Below, piece by piece: positions 19,822 through 28,715 of a stretch of 64,000 nucleotides of DNA (the first letter of the stretch is position 1; the number at the start of each line of letters is the position of its first letter). A program made the translations under genes and the position numbers. Below the pieces are notes generated by a model that saw only the letters and a program-made list of their open reading frames with translations, did not search any database and had not been told where the DNA came from. This DNA is from Escherichia coli (GTDB lineage Bacteria; Pseudomonadota; Gammaproteobacteria; Enterobacterales; Enterobacteriaceae). The stretch lies in NCBI RefSeq assembly GCF_044324785.1, contig NZ_CP172127.1, one strand, 5' to 3'.

Positions 19822-22521
19822 ATGCGTAAATATCCTTTAAGTTTACTGAAGGATAAAAATATTGTGACTTTTTTTGATTTCTGGGGAAAAACCCGACGCG
19901 GCGAGAAAGACGGGGGCGACGACTATCACCTTCTTTGCTGGCATTCGCTGGATGTAGCCGCGATGGGCTATTTAATGGTTAAAAGCAATTGCTTCGGGCT
20001 GGCTGACTATTTTCGTCAACTAGGTTTCGCTGATACGGAGCAGGCAGCACAATTTTTCGCCTGGCTATTGTGCTGGCACGATACTGGAAAATTTGCCCGC
20101 TCTTTTCAGCAACTTTACCTGCACCCGCAACTCAAGGTTCCGGAAAGCTCTAGAAAAAATTACGAAAAAATCTCTCATTCAACGCTGGGTTACTGGTTGT
20201 GGCACCATTATTTAAGTGAATGCGAAGAATTGCTTCCTGCATCTTCACTCTCTCCGCGCAAGCTCAAACGGGTAATAGATATGTGGATGCCCATAACTAC
20301 CGGGCATCATGGTCGGCCTCCTGACCGTATGGATGAACTGGACAACTTTCTGCCTGAAGACAAAGCTGCCGCACGAGATTTTCTCCTTGCAATCAAGGCA
20401 CTGTTTCCGCTCATAGAGATCCCCACATTCTGGGATGATGACGAGGGCGTTGAACTCATAAAACAACTTTCCTGGTATATCTCTGCAACCGTCGTACTCG
20501 CAGACTGGACGGGATCGTCAGCGCGATTTTTTCCACGCGTCGCGCAGGCAATGGATATTGAAGATTACTGGCAGAAGGCTTTAGTTCAGGCTCAAAACGC
20601 ATTAACCGTCTTTCCTCCAAAAGCACAAACCGCGCCTTTCACCGGAATTAATACGCTGTTTCCTTTTATTGAGCACTCGACACCGTTACAGCAAAAGGTG
20701 CTGGATCTGGATATCAGCCAGCCTGGGCCACAGTTATTTATTCTGGAGGATGTGACTGGCGCAGGTAAAACAGAAGCGGCGCTTATCCTGGCCCACAGGT
20801 TGATGGCTGCGGGGAAAGCACAGGGTTTGTTTTTTGGCCTGCCAACAATGGCAACGGCCAATGCCATGTACGATCGGCTGGTCAAAACCTGGCTTGCTTT
20901 CTATTCGCCACAATCCCGCCCCAGCCTGGTGCTGGCACACAGTGCCCGCACATTAATGGATCGCTTTAATGAATCACTCTGGTCCGGTGATTTAGTCGGG
21001 TCAGAAGAACCGGATGAACAAACGTTCAGTCAGGGATGTGCGGCCTGGTTTGCCGACAGTAACAAGAAGGCGTTGCTGGCTGAAATTGGCGTCGGCACTT
21101 TGGATCAGGCGATGATGGCGGTGATGCCGTTCAAACATAATAATCTGCGGCTTCTGGGGCTGAGTAATAAAATCCTGCTGGCTGATGAGATCCACGCCTG
21201 TGACGCTTACATGTCATGCATTCTTGAAGGGCTGATCGAGCGGCAGGCGCGTGGCGGAAACAGCGTCATTTTGCTTTCTGCCACGTTATCTCAACAGCAG
21301 CGCGACAAACTCGTTGCTGCCTTTGCGCGTGGTACAGAGGGCCAGCAAGAAGCTCCGTTCCTGGAAAAGGATGATTACCCCTGGCTGACGCACGTTACGA
21401 AATCCGATGTGCATTCACACCGGGTAGCGACGCGCAAAGACGTTGAGCGTAGCGTGAGCGTGGGTTGGCTTCATAGCGAACAAGAATGTATTGCGCGTAT
21501 CGAATCGGCAGTAAGTCAGGGGAAATGCATCGCCTGGATCCGGAATTCTGTCGATGACGCTATTAAGGTTTATCGTCAGTTGCTTGCCCGCGGCGTCATT
21601 CCTGCTTCCAGCCTTTCTCTGTTTCATAGCCGCTTTGCTTTTAGCGATCGCCAGCGAATTGAAACGGAAACGCTGGCACGCTTCGGTAAAAGTTGTAGTT
21701 TACAGAGATCATCGCAAGTCATTGTTTGTACACAAGTAATTGAACAAAGTGTGGATATTGACCTGGACGAAATGATATCCGACCTGGCCCCTGTTGATTT
21801 GCTGATCCAACGGGCGGGGCGATTACAGCGGCATATCCGCGATATTAATGGTCAGTTAAAGCGTGACGGAAAAGACGAGCGTTCCCCTCCTGAATTGCTG
21901 ATTCTGGCCCCCGTCTGGGACGACGCTCCAGGTGACGAATGGTTCGGCAGTGCCATGCGTAACAGTGCATATGTCTATCCCGATCATGGACGAATCTGGC
22001 TGACGCAGCGTGTACTGCGTGAGCAAGGCGCTATTCAAATGCCACACGCAGCCCGCCTTCTTATTGAATCAGTCTACGGTGAGGACGTGGTAATGCCGGA
22101 AGGATTTGCCCGCAGCGAGCAGGAACAAGTGGGCAAATATTACTGCGATCGCGCAATGGCTAAAAAGTTTGTGCTGAACTTCAGGCCCGGCTATGCCGCC
22201 AATATCAACGATTACCTCCCGGAAAAACTGTCGACACGTCTGTCTGAGGAGTCTGTTTCCCTGTGGCTGTCTACCTGTATTGCCGGTGTGGTAAAGCCTT
22301 ATGCCAACGGTGCTCACGCATGGGAAATGAGCGTTGTCAGAGTGCGTCGAAGCTGGTGGAAAAAACATCGCGATGAGTTTTCTTTACTGGAAGGGGATGC
22401 GTTCAGACAGTGGTGCGTTGAACAGCGGCAAGATCCGGAGATGGCAAATGTGATTTTAGTTACCGATGACGAAAGTTGCGGGTATTCGGCTACGGAGGGA
22501 TTGATAGGTAAGGTTGATTGA
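19822..22521 (+). CDS. cas3: Cas3 helicase-nuclease (type I-E)
   Basis: 899-aa ORF; HD motifs (LLCWHSLDVAAM, WHDTGKF) then DEAD/DExH helicase motifs (GAGKTEAAL, DEIH); start uncertain (ATG 19822 lacks SD; in-frame GTG 19864 has AAGGA upstream); sequence diverges from K-12 Cas3. Confidence 0.9.
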   Translation: MRKYPLSLLKDKNIVTFFDFWGKTRRGEKDGGDDYHLLCWHSLDVAAMGYLMVKSNCFGLADYFRQLGFADTEQAAQFFAWLLCWHDTGKFARSFQQLYLHPQLKVPESSRKNYEKISHSTLGYWLWHHYLSECEELLPASSLSPRKLKRVIDMWMPITTGHHGRPPDRMDELDNFLPEDKAAARDFLLAIKALFPLIEIPTFWDDDEGVELIKQLSWYISATVVLADWTGSSARFFPRVAQAMDIEDYWQKALVQAQNALTVFPPKAQTAPFTGINTLFPFIEHSTPLQQKVLDLDISQPGPQLFILEDVTGAGKTEAALILAHRLMAAGKAQGLFFGLPTMATANAMYDRLVKTWLAFYSPQSRPSLVLAHSARTLMDRFNESLWSGDLVGSEEPDEQTFSQGCAAWFADSNKKALLAEIGVGTLDQAMMAVMPFKHNNLRLLGLSNKILLADEIHACDAYMSCILEGLIERQARGGNSVILLSATLSQQQRDKLVAAFARGTEGQQEAPFLEKDDYPWLTHVTKSDVHSHRVATRKDVERSVSVGWLHSEQECIARIESAVSQGKCIAWIRNSVDDAIKVYRQLLARGVIPASSLSLFHSRFAFSDRQRIETETLARFGKSCSLQRSSQVIVCTQVIEQSVDIDLDEMISDLAPVDLLIQRAGRLQRHIRDINGQLKRDGKDERSPPELLILAPVWDDAPGDEWFGSAMRNSAYVYPDHGRIWLTQRVLREQGAIQMPHAARLLIESVYGEDVVMPEGFARSEQEQVGKYYCDRAMAKKFVLNFRPGYAANINDYLPEKLSTRLSEESVSLWLSTCIAGVVKPYANGAHAWEMSVVRVRRSWWKKHRDEFSLLEGDAFRQWCVEQRQDPEMANVILVTDDESCGYSATEGLIGKVD

Positions 22522-22524
22522 GAT

Positions 22525-22550
22525 GCCCTGGCGTCGGATGACGCCAGGGC
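22525..22550. other. Perfect 11-bp inverted repeat immediately after cas3 stop
   Basis: gccctggcgtc ggat gacgccagggc; no U-tract, so not a canonical intrinsic terminator. Confidence 0.6.
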
Positions 22551-26873: not shown

Positions 26874-27505
26874 CCTTACATACCGGCCAGCTTTCGCCTG
26901 CGCAGTTGCTGCATTTGGTGGATCGCGGTGAATATGTAATGCATCAGTGGCTGTGGGATCTTTTTCCTGGCGGCAAAGAAAGGCAATTTCTTTATCGTCG
27001 GGAAGAACTCCAGGGGGCGTTTCGCTTTTTTGTCCTGTCGCAGGAACGCCCGGCGGAAAGTGATATTTTCACCATCGAATGCCGACCATTTGCGCCAGAG
27101 TTGCGTACCGGACAATCCCTTTGTTTCAACCTCCGGGCGAATCCAACAATTTGTAAAGCGGGCAAACGCCACGACTTGCTGATGGAGGCGAAACGGCAGG
27201 TGAGGGGGCAGGTGGAAGGAAGTGATGTCTGGTTGCATCAACAACAGGCTGCGCTGGACTGGCTGGCAGCGCAGGGGGAGAGAAGCGGTTTTACACTGCT
27301 GGATACTTCGGTTGATGCCTACCGACAACAGCAACTGCGGCGGGAAAACTCCCGGCAACTGATCCAGTTCAGTAGCGTGGATTATACGGGGATGCTTACG
27401 GTCACCGATCCTGGGTTATTTCTGCAACGTCTCAGTCAGGGGTATGGCAAAAGCCGGGCGTTCGGTTGTGGTCTGATGCTGATCAAACCCGGAGCAGAGG
27501 CGTGA
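26855..27505 (+). CDS. casE: Cas6e/CasE crRNA endoribonuclease
   Basis: 216 aa from MYLSRITL (AAGGAGG SD upstream); K-12 CasE also starts MYLS; C-terminal GCGLM motif; 19-nt overlap with casD. Confidence 0.85.
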   Translation: MYLSRITLHTGQLSPAQLLHLVDRGEYVMHQWLWDLFPGGKERQFLYRREELQGAFRFFVLSQERPAESDIFTIECRPFAPELRTGQSLCFNLRANPTICKAGKRHDLLMEAKRQVRGQVEGSDVWLHQQQAALDWLAAQGERSGFTLLDTSVDAYRQQQLRRENSRQLIQFSSVDYTGMLTVTDPGLFLQRLSQGYGKSRAFGCGLMLIKPGAEA

Positions 27506-28425
27506 CGTTTGTACCGCTGAGCCCGATCCCATTAAAAGATCGCACTTCCATGATCTTCCTCCAGTACGGTCAAATCGACGTACTGGACGGCGCTTTCGTG
27601 CTGATCGACAAAACCGGGATCCGCACGCATATTCCAGTGGGATCGGTCGCCTGCATTATGCTCGAACCGGGAACAAGAGTTTCCCACGCGGCAGTCCATC
27701 TGGCCGCCACGGTGGGGACGCTACTGGTCTGGGTCGGTGAAGCGGGTGTTCGCGTCTACTCTTCCGGACAACCCGGTGGGGCGCGTGCTGATAAGTTACT
27801 CTACCAGGCAATGCTGGCTTTAACGGAAGATCTACGCCTGAAGGTGGTGCGCAAAATGTATGAATTACGTTTTCGTGAGCCACCGCCAGCTCGCCGTTCA
27901 GTGGAGCAGCTACGGGGAATTGAGGGATCCCGCGTTCGCCAGACCTATGCATTACTGGCGAAACAATATGGTGTGAAATGGAATGGTCGCAAATACGATC
28001 CTAAAGACTGGGAAAAAGGCGATGTTGTCAATCGCTGCATCAGTGCTGCCACATCATGCCTGTACGGTATTTCTGAAGCGGCAGTATTAGCTGCGGGATA
28101 TGCGCCCGCTATTGGTTTTATCCATAGTGGCAAACCGCTTTCATTTGTTTACGACATAGCCGATATCATTAAATTTGATTCGGTTGTACCAAAGGCATTT
28201 GAAATAGCGGCGAGGCAACCCGCAGAACCTGATAAAGAAGTCAGGTTGGCTTGTCGCGATATTTTCCGTAGCTCTAAGTTAACGGGCAAATTAATTCCGT
28301 TAATTGAGGAAGTGCTTGCCGCAGGTGAAATTGAACCACCACAACCCGCGCCGGATATGTTACCGCCAGCCATCCCCGAACCTGAAACGTTGGGCGATAG
28401 CGGTCATCGAGGACGCGGCGGATGA
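27502..28425 (+). CDS. cas1: Cas1 integrase
   Basis: GTG start overlapping casE stop (GTGA); product [27 protein letters not shown]... closely matches K-12 Cas1 as recalled; 307 aa. Confidence 0.9.
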
Positions 28426-28715
28426 GTATGATCGTAGTTGTAACGGAAAATGTTCCTCCACGTTTACGTGGACGGCTCGCTATCTGGCTATTGGAAGTGC
28501 GTGCCGGTGTGTATGTCGGAGATACATCCAAACGTATTCGGGAGATGATCTGGCAGCAAATCTCTCAACTGGCAGGTTGCGGAAATGTAGTGATGGCTTG
28601 GGCGACCAATACCGAGTCAGGTTTTGAATTTCAGACCTGGGGTGAAAATAGACGTATTCCGGTGGATTTGGATGGGTTGCGTTTGGTTTCTTTTCTTCCT
28701 GTTGATAATCAATAA
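28422..28715 (+). CDS. cas2: Cas2
   Basis: 97 aa, [34 protein letters not shown]..., closely matches K-12 Cas2 as recalled; ATGA overlap with cas1. Confidence 0.9.

Follow-up and report, generated by a model that had tools for sequence, protein, structure and literature searches.

The cas-E genes of Escherichia coli are dimorphic: the E1 and E2 variants differ by replacement of the whole cassette together with its leader (Almendros et al. 2014, PMC3903273). The variants have also been named cas-EK and cas-EO, the latter being the O157:H7 type (Diez-Villasenor et al. 2013, PMC3737337), and E1 has been called 'var. B-8552' (PMC12736100). In the published model, the entire cas group is co-transferred (PMC2886076, PMC3903273). 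Leader type is tied to the cas variant (PMC3903273, PMC3737337), and the acquisition PAM preference is reported to differ between variants, CTT versus CWT (PMC3737337). A 2025 paper gives identities of the E1 proteins to those of K-12 as 29/23/-/31/32/29/84/86% (PMC12736100). Adaptation and effector modules have been described as evolving semi-independently, through 'module shuffling' (Koonin and Makarova 2019, PMC6452270), and mini-arrays between cas3 and cas8e of type I-E loci (CreR/regulatory) form a published class (10.1101/2023.03.03.530964; 10.1101/2023.03.10.532045).

An E1-type locus between cysH and iap

The window (the 64,000-nucleotide stretch of E. coli DNA analyzed here) carries a complete type I-E set of eight cas genes, extending from cas3 at 19822 to cas2 at 28715, as the initial annotation proposed and as gene calls and NCBIfam confirm. 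The set is bounded by cysH on one side and by a CRISPR array and iap on the other. All I-E signature genes (cas3, cse1/cas8e, cse2/cas11, cas7e, cas5e, cas6e, cas1e and cas2e) lie in one operon, and all eight Cas proteins exceed the NCBIfam I-E cut-offs, with CasC scanned as its intact homologue from strain 06-00048 (98.9% identical). On the plus strand, the genes are cas3 (19822-22521, 899 aa; cas3_core and cas3_HD above cut-off; 98.3% amino acid identity to E. coli 06-00048), casA/cse1/cas8e (22951-24513, 520 aa; TIGR02547, 609.7 bits), casB/cse2/cas11 (24510-25046, 178 aa; TIGR02548), casC/cas7e (25061-26116), casD/cas5e (26127-26873, 248 aa; TIGR01868; 100% amino acid identity to 06-00048), casE/cas6e (26855-27505, 216 aa; TIGR01907), cas1e (27502-28425, 307 aa, GTG start; TIGR03638) and cas2e (28422-28715, 97 aa; TIGR01873). 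The genes from cas3 to casE are of E1 type, and casE overlaps the start of cas1 by 4 nt. Between cysH and cas3, translation reveals an intact 50-aa Hok/Gef-family open reading frame (19475-19627, plus strand), the counterpart of which carries this annotation in 06-00048, N3 and O157:H7.

Several lines of evidence identify this locus as the ordinary majority type I-E variant of E. coli (E1, O157:H7-like) and not a hybrid. Identity to 06-00048 is 96.1-100% for each of the eight cas genes, and identity to O157:H7 is 86-100% over coding sequence in 300-nt windows. The closest whole-operon match is E. coli N3 (98.5%), with the closest genomes at 98.2-98.5%. All eight genes of the window type occur at 90% identity or above in more than 2,400 complete E. 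coli genomes, and at least 80% of the window operon is present in 2,408 genomes, versus 1,115 with the K-12 interference block. Uniform identity to a single reference, which the initial annotation itself had named as evidence against its mosaic reading, is thus in essence what we found. As in published E1 loci, the eight genes occupy the cysH-iap site, where E1a, E1b and E2 cassettes all reside in Enterobacteriaceae, and their published lengths equal those in the window (2700, 1563, 537, 1056, 747, 651, 924 and 294 nt). Membership in E2 was rejected: E. coli genomes of the E2 type match K-12 at 95-100% (criterion, at least 95%), whereas the window shows 24-35% amino acid identity across cas3-casE and 74-77% nucleotide identity across cas1-cas2.

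The repeat and leader are likewise those of E1. The CRISPR-I array (28812-29451, plus strand) comprises 11 repeats, the last one degenerate, and 10 spacers; its repeat, GTGTTCCCCGCGCCAGCGGGGATAAACCG, is 29 nt long and of 'type A' (…GGGGAACAC / GTGTTCC…), whereas the K-12 repeat, one base different, has GAGTT.... Periodicity is 61-62 nt over 28,812-29,451, corresponding to 29-nt repeats with 32-33-nt spacers. The leader (28716-28811, plus strand; L1 or leader-A type in the literature) belongs to a region 100% identical to 06-00048 and N3 until ~28,750 and ~70% identical to K-12; its E1 assignment rests on this nucleotide identity to E1 genomes and not on the logo in Fig. S4 of PMC3903273.

The window differs from the described E1 variant in having its own mix of E1 allele tracts (N3-like, 135-like and 06-00048-like), a long cas3-casA gap with a mini-array where O157:H7 has the short form, and a private nonsense codon in casC. 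This last is an in-frame change of codon 83 from GAA to TAA (25307-25309) that leaves 82 of 351 aa, so that one Cascade subunit is not intact. Of the 5,426 complete E. coli genomes searched, none matches the site perfectly; the best match, 99.0% with one mismatch in 101 nt, occurs in 897 of them. Because casC is truncated, interference is predicted to be inactive in the window, although the TAA may be a sequencing artifact.

The cas3-casA intergenic region (22522-22950) is an AT-rich (~35% GC) length variant, 429 bp long in the window and ~90-97 bp in O157:H7, ETEC1748 and E. albertii. No homology was found between it and the 414-bp counterpart in K-12. A hairpin just past the cas3 stop (22527-22550) is followed by a CRISPR-repeat-derived mini-array on the minus strand (22547-22633), inverted relative to the main array, in which a near-consensus repeat (22547-22575) and a degenerate repeat (22609-22633) enclose a spacer-like stretch of 33 nt (22576-22608). 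With two repeat-like sequences around a spacer-length stretch, a long cas3-cas8e gap and an orientation antisense to cas3, it fits the CreR class. A regulatory role like that described for the class would be putative here, since no PAM-flanked seed match of its spacer to the casA promoter region was found: the longest match from the seed covers 6-8 nt and has no AAG or ATG PAM beside it, and a 10-nt internal match (TGATATACGT, 22692-22701) lies outside the seed. Of 67 loci, 14 have inverted repeat-like copies in a long cas3-casA gap, and none has directly oriented ones there.

Similarity to K-12 along the locus

The K-12 cas-E2 locus shares subtype, gene order, chromosomal site and overall mechanism with the window, and similarity between the two falls into three tiers. 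The flanks are 93-100% identical in nucleotide sequence; the DNA of cas3-casE is not alignable, its proteins being 24-35% identical; and the moderately similar cas1-cas2, with the leader, make up the third tier. On the left, the variable cassette begins at ~19,450-19,500, with K-12 identity passing from 96% to 71% to 53% over 19,300-19,700. On the right, ~70% identity persists through the leader, below the flank level, and the clonal frame with K-12 comes back only at ~29,500; iap (29533-30570, minus strand) marks the return to 94-100% identity.

Cas3, CasA and CasE are as unlike K-12 as the initial annotation held (30.8%, 24.1% and 31.2% amino acid identity). CasC and CasD are 31.9% and 35.0% identical; CasB reaches about 27% over 48 aa, and tblastn yielded no match to CasB of K-12. 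Rounded in operon order (31/24/27/32/35/31/84/86%), these are the same identities to K-12 as in the published E1 table (PMC12736100). The similarity change that had been placed near 27,500, at the casE/cas1 overlap, also stands: in 200-nt windows, a heavily gapped ~50% identity gives way to a gap-free 71-75% precisely at the first codon of cas1. The accompanying statement that Cas1 and Cas2 are nearly identical to K-12 does not. Cas1 is 84.3% identical in amino acid and 74% in nucleotide sequence, and Cas2 86.2% and 77%. Split by first, second and third codon position, cas1 reaches 82/90/39% identity and cas2 84/90/44%, against 99/99/89% for the flanking cysH. The low third-position identity implies that synonymous sites of cas1-cas2 are near saturation relative to K-12 and, together with the low nucleotide identity, places these genes outside the clonal frame common to K-12. 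GC content shows no step from casE to cas1 in the window (53.9% to 52.4%) but rises there in K-12 (45.3% to 51.3%), in keeping with a chimeric K-12 operon; between the two variants, GC is 44-48% (K-12) versus 50-55% (window).

We consider it very probable, at roughly 85%, that the window holds a standard E1 locus with one history, that the K-12 E2 cassette is chimeric, and that the step at the cas1 start arises from unusual conservation of Cas1e-Cas2e together with the chimeric nature of the K-12 reference. Conservation is apparent in the 80 related loci retained (best 80 of 202 Cas1-anchored candidates), all of which have Cas1e-Cas2e at least 75% identical in amino acid sequence, a floor that is partly a sampling effect, since loci were picked by Cas1 similarity and more divergent adaptation modules fall outside the sample. 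At ~85% amino acid identity, the window Cas1-Cas2 are no nearer to those of K-12 than to those of Pectobacterium, Dickeya or Samsonia.

Histories of the interference and adaptation modules

Neighbor-joining trees (Kimura distances, 200 bootstraps) were built for the adaptation (Cas1+Cas2) and interference (Cas7+Cas5+Cas6) modules; these and the quartet site counts cover 78 I-E loci chosen via Cas1 similarity (best 80 of 202). In both trees the window falls in the same nested clades, first with Escherichia, then with Salmonella/Klebsiella/Citrobacter, then Atlantibacter, then Parasutterella. Bootstraps are 157-200/200 at five of the seven nodes common to the trees; the weaker nodes are an 11-member clade (82/200 adaptation, 167/200 interference) and the pairing of the window with 06-00048 (137/200 in the interference tree). 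A 12-member clade with E. albertii, Salmonella and Klebsiella bounds the window Cas1+Cas2 at 198/200 and encloses the weak 11-member one, and the quartet uniting the window with Salmonella against K-12 with Raoultella is favored by both modules (35:2:0 adaptation, 43:10:3 interference). Identical nested placement means that the window operon is coherent, its eight genes having one common history.

The operon with discordant modules is that of K-12. Its Cascade is sister to that of Citrobacter amalonaticus (195/200) within a 13-member family (200/200), and its Cas1-Cas2 fall inside a group of UBA5654, Raoultella and C. portucalensis (174/200), the other members of which are congruent between both trees. 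The loci of UBA5654, Raoultella terrigena and C. portucalensis carry an E1-related Cascade, of a different family from that of K-12. We propose that K-12 cas3-casE derive from a deeply divergent Cascade family with its nearest relative in C. amalonaticus, and cas1-cas2 from the adaptation lineage of the UBA5654/R. terrigena/C. portucalensis loci. The exchanges may have run in this direction, by recombination anchored on the right in conserved cas1-cas2 or repeats and on the left in cysH-side sequence.

The step might instead reflect rate heterogeneity only, E1 and E2 having diverged as whole cassettes with Cas1-Cas2 evolving about ten times more slowly and no module exchange. Such a history accords with the published model of co-transfer, with Cas1/Cas2 that are 75-95% identical across sampled loci whatever the Cascade family, and with adaptation divergence 3-5 times below interference divergence within the E1a clade. 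It is nonetheless improbable, and the conflicts between modules refute it. The nearest relatives of K-12 Cas1-Cas2 (90-94%) accompany Cascade only 30-31% identical to that of K-12, whereas at loci where Cascade resembles that of K-12 (55-69%), Cas1-Cas2 identity is just 78-84%; quartets conflict on K-12 (26:0:2 against 3:170:3) and elsewhere (36:2:2 against 4:104:6); cross-family pairs reach 93-99% adaptation identity; and breakpoints sometimes lie away from the gene boundary.

A still smaller chance attaches to the mosaic operon of the initial annotation, in which divergent cas3-casE would be joined at ~27,500 to K-12-type cas1-cas2. The exact position of the step, from ~50% to ~73% identity, and a window-K-12 adaptation identity (85%) that ranks at the 96th percentile among cross-family pairs speak for it, but congruent placement of both modules refutes it, and each of the eight genes is 96-100% identical to E1 references. 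This mosaic of E1 interference with E2 adaptation was also rejected on the third-position identities, the adaptation quartet, and Cas1-Cas2 proteins that are 96-99% identical to, and group with, those of Salmonella and E. albertii. Cas1-cas2 identity to the window is, moreover, strictly bimodal in E. coli, with 2,732 genomes at 90% or above, 1,221 at 60-80% and none between; that E. coli lacks E1/E2 hybrids is suggested at the level of total counts, which agree (2,732 versus 2,792; 1,221 versus 1,187).

Least plausible is a recent local E. coli recombination replacing only the casE/cas1 junction: a 1.0-kb tract at 27133-28152, spanning the casE 3' end and two-thirds of cas1, does differ from N3 at 58 positions (5.7%) and is 99-100% identical to 06-00048, but it swaps E1 alleles (92-100% identity) with K-12 similarity unaltered, and K-12 identity changes at 27,500 and ~29,500, not at 27,133 and 28,152; the 71-75% level persists well past the tract, to the end of cas2 and on into the leader and array. 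The tract is genuine, yet the observation in the initial annotation concerned something else. With similar tracts at 20415-20836 (cas3) and 23019-23859 (casA, strain 135-like), recombination in the window operon is limited to the usual short homologous patches between E1 alleles.

For several lineages the two module trees are strongly at odds, as are the quartet site counts. Same-genus adaptation sisters (199-200/200) carry different Cascade families in Marinomonas, Oceanospirillum, Halopseudomonas, Alteromonas/Marisediminitalea and Citrobacter, and nucleotide identity in such pairs rises where cas1 begins, except in two of them, where the rise comes ~900 bp upstream. Same-genus clustering of Cas1-Cas2 could be inflated by compositional convergence within the host genus, although the high nucleotide identity of several pairs (81-97%) makes it unlikely as the main cause. 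As in published module shuffling (PMC6452270), Cas1-Cas2 and effector trees differ and modules recombine; that process was described mainly between types and subtypes, whereas here it operates within I-E, repeatedly, at the casE/cas1 junction, and applies to K-12 and other lineages, not to the window. The initial proposal that the two modules are exchanged separately at this junction therefore holds in general and fails for the window. The difference between E1 and K-12 at this locus is already known and published; module exchange between casE and cas1 is real and recurrent, and it happened in the K-12 lineage.

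Layout of the cysH–iap locus and its divergence from K-12

Between 16.7 and 33 kb, the window carries cysJIH, cas3-casABCDE-cas1-cas2, a CRISPR array, iap and cysDN, in reversed orientation relative to MG1655, our K-12 reference. The interference genes are cas3 (19822-22521), casA (22951-24513), casB (24510-25046), casC (25061-26116), casD (26127-26873) and casE (26855-27505); the adaptation genes are cas1 (27502-28425), which has a GTG start, and cas2 (28422-28715). The initial annotation had placed all eight exactly. A 96-nt leader directly follows cas2, and the array (28,812-29,451) contains 11 repeats and 10 spacers. 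All eight Cas proteins score above the curated cut-offs of the NCBIfam type I-E models, with CasC, which is interrupted by a nonsense codon at codon 83, represented by its intact homolog from E. coli 06-00048 (98.9% identical).

The gap between cysH and cas3 contains an intact 50-aa Hok/Gef-family open reading frame (ORF; 19475-19627), which is annotated in 06-00048 as a pseudogene with an internal stop; the sole annotation in the K-12 gap is the sokX small-RNA gene. The window also holds the second E. coli type I-E locus (CRISPR-II), comprising approximately 10 repeats with degenerate distal units (2200-2777) and a short degenerate array (3232-3370), in surroundings where ygcE and other ygc genes are annotated. 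Its repeats share the sequence and strand of those in the main array.

We computed per-gene identities against MG1655 and a sliding-window alignment across the locus. Amino acid identity to K-12 is low throughout the interference module (Cas3, 30.8%; CasA, 24.1%; CasB, approximately 27% over a short stretch; CasC, 31.9%; CasD, 35.0%; CasE, 31.2%), higher in the adaptation module (Cas1, 84.3%; Cas2, 86.2%) and above 99% in the flanking CysI and CysH. In the sliding window, flanks that are 93-100% identical give way at 19.5-27.5 kb to approximately 50% identity with so many gaps that this stretch is unalignable to K-12. From 27.5 to approximately 28.9 kb the alignment is practically gap-free, mostly at 71-75% with a dip to 61-64% at 28.2-28.5 kb, and flank-level identity resumes only at approximately 29.5 kb.

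The step near casE/cas1 that had been proposed from the sequence is real, and it falls at the first codon of cas1. The accompanying description of Cas1 and Cas2 as nearly identical to K-12 was wrong, as the genes share only 74-77% nucleotide identity. At third codon positions, identity is 39% for cas1 and 44% for cas2, against 89% for cysH; the cas1-cas2 pair of the window is anciently diverged from that of K-12 and lies outside the shared clonal frame. Nor do GC content or codon usage show a step at 27,500 in the window, where casE is 53.9% and cas1 52.4% GC; it is in K-12 that GC climbs, from 45.3% in casE to 51.3% in cas1.

The window as a common E1 locus

Two E. coli cas-E variants that occupy this same site have been described. 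E1, the majority form, to which O157:H7 belongs, clusters with Salmonella and E. albertii and averages 53.5% GC; E2 is found in K-12, some phylogroup A strains and E. fergusonii, at 45.6% GC (Almendros et al. 2014, PMC3903273). Those authors concluded that the whole gene set, the leader and at least one repeat had been replaced, and co-transfer of the entire cas group was also inferred by Touchon and Rocha (2010, PMC2886076). Diez-Villasenor et al. (2013, PMC3737337) named the variants cas-EO and cas-EK and tied them to type-A and type-T repeats, to leaders and to different acquisition motifs. In a 2025 survey (PMC12736100), gene lengths match those of the window, interference-gene identities are 29, 23, none, 31, 32 and 29%, and cas1 and cas2 stand at 84% (73% nucleotide) and 86% (75% nucleotide).

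The window belongs to the first of these variants. Its repeat is type A, its cas genes are 96.1-100% identical to those of 06-00048, and its operon is 98.5% identical to that of E. coli N3; the best whole-region match reaches only 96.3% because spacers differ. We therefore rejected another species or Shigella as the source of the window, given also the 98.5% match of the cas genes to E. coli and the 99.8% match of mutS-rpoS to N3. At least 80% of the operon is held by 2,408 of 5,426 complete E. coli genomes, and 1,115 of the same set hold the K-12 interference block. Identity to the window's cas1-cas2 is strictly bimodal in E. coli, with 2,732 genomes reaching at least 90%, 1,221 falling at 60-80% and no genome between. 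Because these numbers agree with those of the two interference types, E1/E2 hybrids can be no more than rare. The window is a common cas-E1 locus and an ordinary example of a polymorphism already known.

N3 is also the closest complete genome overall, at 99.8% over mutS-rpoS. The differences from it fall in discrete tracts, 0.4-1.0 kb long and 3.5-6% divergent, each of which is 99-100% like a different E1 strain: 18,436-19,198 (cysH), 20,415-20,836 (cas3), 23,019-23,859 (casA; like strain 135) and 27,133-28,152 (58 differences across the casE 3' end and cas1; like 06-00048). These tracts reflect ordinary homologous recombination among E1 alleles, such as Almendros et al. (PMC3903273) also detected. 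The last tract straddles the casE/cas1 boundary by chance; we considered it as a source of the step against K-12 and rejected it as unrelated.

Codon 83 of casC (cas7e; 25,307-25,309), which is GAA (Glu83) in all E1 references, reads as an in-frame TAA in the window. None of the 5,426 complete E. coli genomes shares this allele; it is either a sequencing error or an inactivation of Cascade private to this strain. If the stop is real, Cascade could not assemble and interference would be lost; from the gene sequence, it probably disables interference by this locus.

The gap between cas3 and casA (22522-22950) is the long form of a length polymorphism within E1. It measures 429 bp at 35% GC in the window, is of equal length in 06-00048 and N3, and takes a diverged form of roughly 450 bp in strain 135, with O157:H7, ETEC1748 and E. 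albertii having a short form of about 90-97 bp. It has no homology to the 414-bp K-12 gap; the only matches are CRISPR repeats, and these brought to light an inverted mini-array at 22,547-22,633. Antisense to cas3, this element consists of a near-consensus repeat (2 mismatches) and a degenerate repeat on either side of a 33-nt spacer-like stretch, and is preceded by a hairpin after the cas3 stop (22527-22633 overall). Inverted repeat-like copies occur in long cas3-casA gaps in 14 of 67 I-E loci, none having a direct copy, and stem changes in the inverted copies, such as GC…GC to GT…AC, keep pairing. In these sequence features, the window element matches the published class of regulatory mini-arrays (CreR) and may be a member of it. 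A search of 22,300-23,100 with two spacer definitions yielded no convincing PAM-flanked, seed-first target for its spacer, so a regulatory function in the window is only putative.

Probable separate histories of interference and adaptation modules in K-12 and other I-E loci

A scan with a Cas1 alignment over one genome per species (GTDB) provided 80 loci with 10-kb flanks, the best 80 of 202 candidates, in which we located all Cas proteins. Neighbor-joining trees (200 bootstraps) were built from Cas1+Cas2 (402 columns) and Cas7+Cas5+Cas6e (745 columns). The loci range from Enterobacteriaceae to Marinomonas, Methylophaga, Shewanella and Parasutterella, yet Cas1 and Cas2 share 75-95% identity with both E. 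coli variants in every one of these Cas1-selected loci, so the window's 85% to K-12 equals its identity to Pectobacterium or Dickeya. Cascade and Cas3, in contrast, split into deeply separated families.

The initial annotation had interpreted the step as a mosaic operon in the window. This is not borne out: the window falls in identical nested clades in both trees, first in that of the four Escherichia loci, then in 11- and 12-member clades in which Salmonella, Klebsiella, Citrobacter, Phytobacter and Intestinirhabdus join the Escherichia loci, then with Atlantibacter and finally Parasutterella. Of the seven shared nodes, five reach 157-200 of 200 bootstraps in each tree. Support for the 11-member clade is weak by adaptation genes (82/200; interference, 167/200), and the node joining the window to 06-00048 has 137/200 in the interference tree. 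As read from these trees, the window operon has one history, and the mosaic is that of K-12.

The K-12 interference genes are sister to those of Citrobacter amalonaticus (195/200) within a 13-member family (200/200). Its adaptation genes nest with Enterobacteriaceae UBA5654, Raoultella terrigena and C. portucalensis (174/200), inside a 12-member clade (156/200) whose other members have an E1-related Cascade and are placed congruently with one another in the two trees. As an assumption-light check we counted quartet sites for K-12, UBA5654, C. amalonaticus and Citrobacter sp. 18056, which gave 26:0:2 for K-12 with UBA5654 among adaptation sites and 3:170:3 for K-12 with C. amalonaticus among interference sites. 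Within the limits of neighbor-joining trees of Cas1-chosen loci, this indicates that the two halves of the K-12 operon have different ancestries.

Similar conflicts recur elsewhere. Several sister pairs in the adaptation tree (199-200/200) have different Cascade families, including Marinomonas rhodophyticola/ostreistagni, Oceanospirillum linum/maris, Halopseudomonas formosensis/xiamenensis, an Alteromonas metagenome-assembled genome (MAG) with Marisediminitalea, and Citrobacter sp. 18056/C. amalonaticus; no fewer than six to eight independent pairs show this pattern, and a further quartet gave 36:2:2 versus 4:104:6. At the cas1 start, nucleotide identity within these pairs jumps from approximately 45% to 80-95%. 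In two pairs, Halopseudomonas (L063/L070) and Alteromonas/Marisediminitalea (L065/L067), 77-97% identity reaches approximately 900 bp upstream of cas1 and the remainder of the interference block is unalignable, which puts the breakpoint upstream of the casE/cas1 boundary and favors real breakpoints over a rate peculiar to the gene. Adaptation identity in cross-family pairs spans 69%-99% (median 77%); the window and K-12 rank at the 96th percentile, which fits an Enterobacteriaceae origin of the K-12 cas1-cas2. The cysH–iap site in this family is occupied by E1a, E1b and E2 cassettes.

The same sample contains evidence of whole-cassette movement. In Pseudocitrobacter vendiensis (L006, 1-8000), the cas genes in the stretch covered (casB to cas2 and the end of casA) have 95-98% protein identity to the window's E1 genes, and the adjoining iap is only 80% identical, which suggests recent horizontal transfer of an E1 cassette into the same site of another genus. 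The gut betaproteobacterium Parasutterella excrementihominis (L068) has a I-E locus sister to the Enterobacteriaceae E1a clade in both trees (adaptation, 157/200; interference, 199/200), implying whole-cassette transfer between classes. Two MAGs labeled Bacillota (L003) and Collinsella (L076) contribute short contigs with E. coli E1 cas genes (protein identity mostly 94-99%; CasB 86% in L076), most likely E. coli contigs mis-binned into unrelated genomes.

We propose that the K-12 I-E operon is an intra-subtype chimera, and that cas3-casE has been swapped recurrently beside cas1-cas2 across Gammaproteobacteria with the casE/cas1 junction as a recurrent recombination point; we put the probability of this reading at about 0.6. 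In K-12, an E2-family cas3-casE block would have been joined to the cas1-cas2-leader of an Enterobacteriaceae lineage that normally accompanies E1-related Cascade. Elsewhere, the block may have been exchanged repeatedly next to a "resident," host-lineage-specific cas1-cas2, for which the highly conserved cas1-cas2 and repeats are a plausible homology anchor. Separate module exchange with a junction at casE/cas1, the part of the initial interpretation that stands, is supported as a principle by the tree and quartet conflicts.

The general principle of module shuffling is established. Our literature search returned general reviews only, and no paper that spells out module exchange within subtype I-E, be it for Enterobacteria or for K-12; the chimeric ancestry of K-12 and the recurrent swaps are potentially the sole new point here, and concern genomes other than the window's. 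The window's own locus has little significance. For E. coli CRISPR-Cas, K-12 is not a typical reference, and divergence from it should not be taken as a sign of anything unusual in the locus compared. If true, the proposed exchange would bear on the degree to which Cas1-Cas2 need to co-adapt with Cascade and Cas3 (primed adaptation being one case) and on how effector modules may be renewed, for example under anti-CRISPR pressure, while arrays and integrases stay in place.
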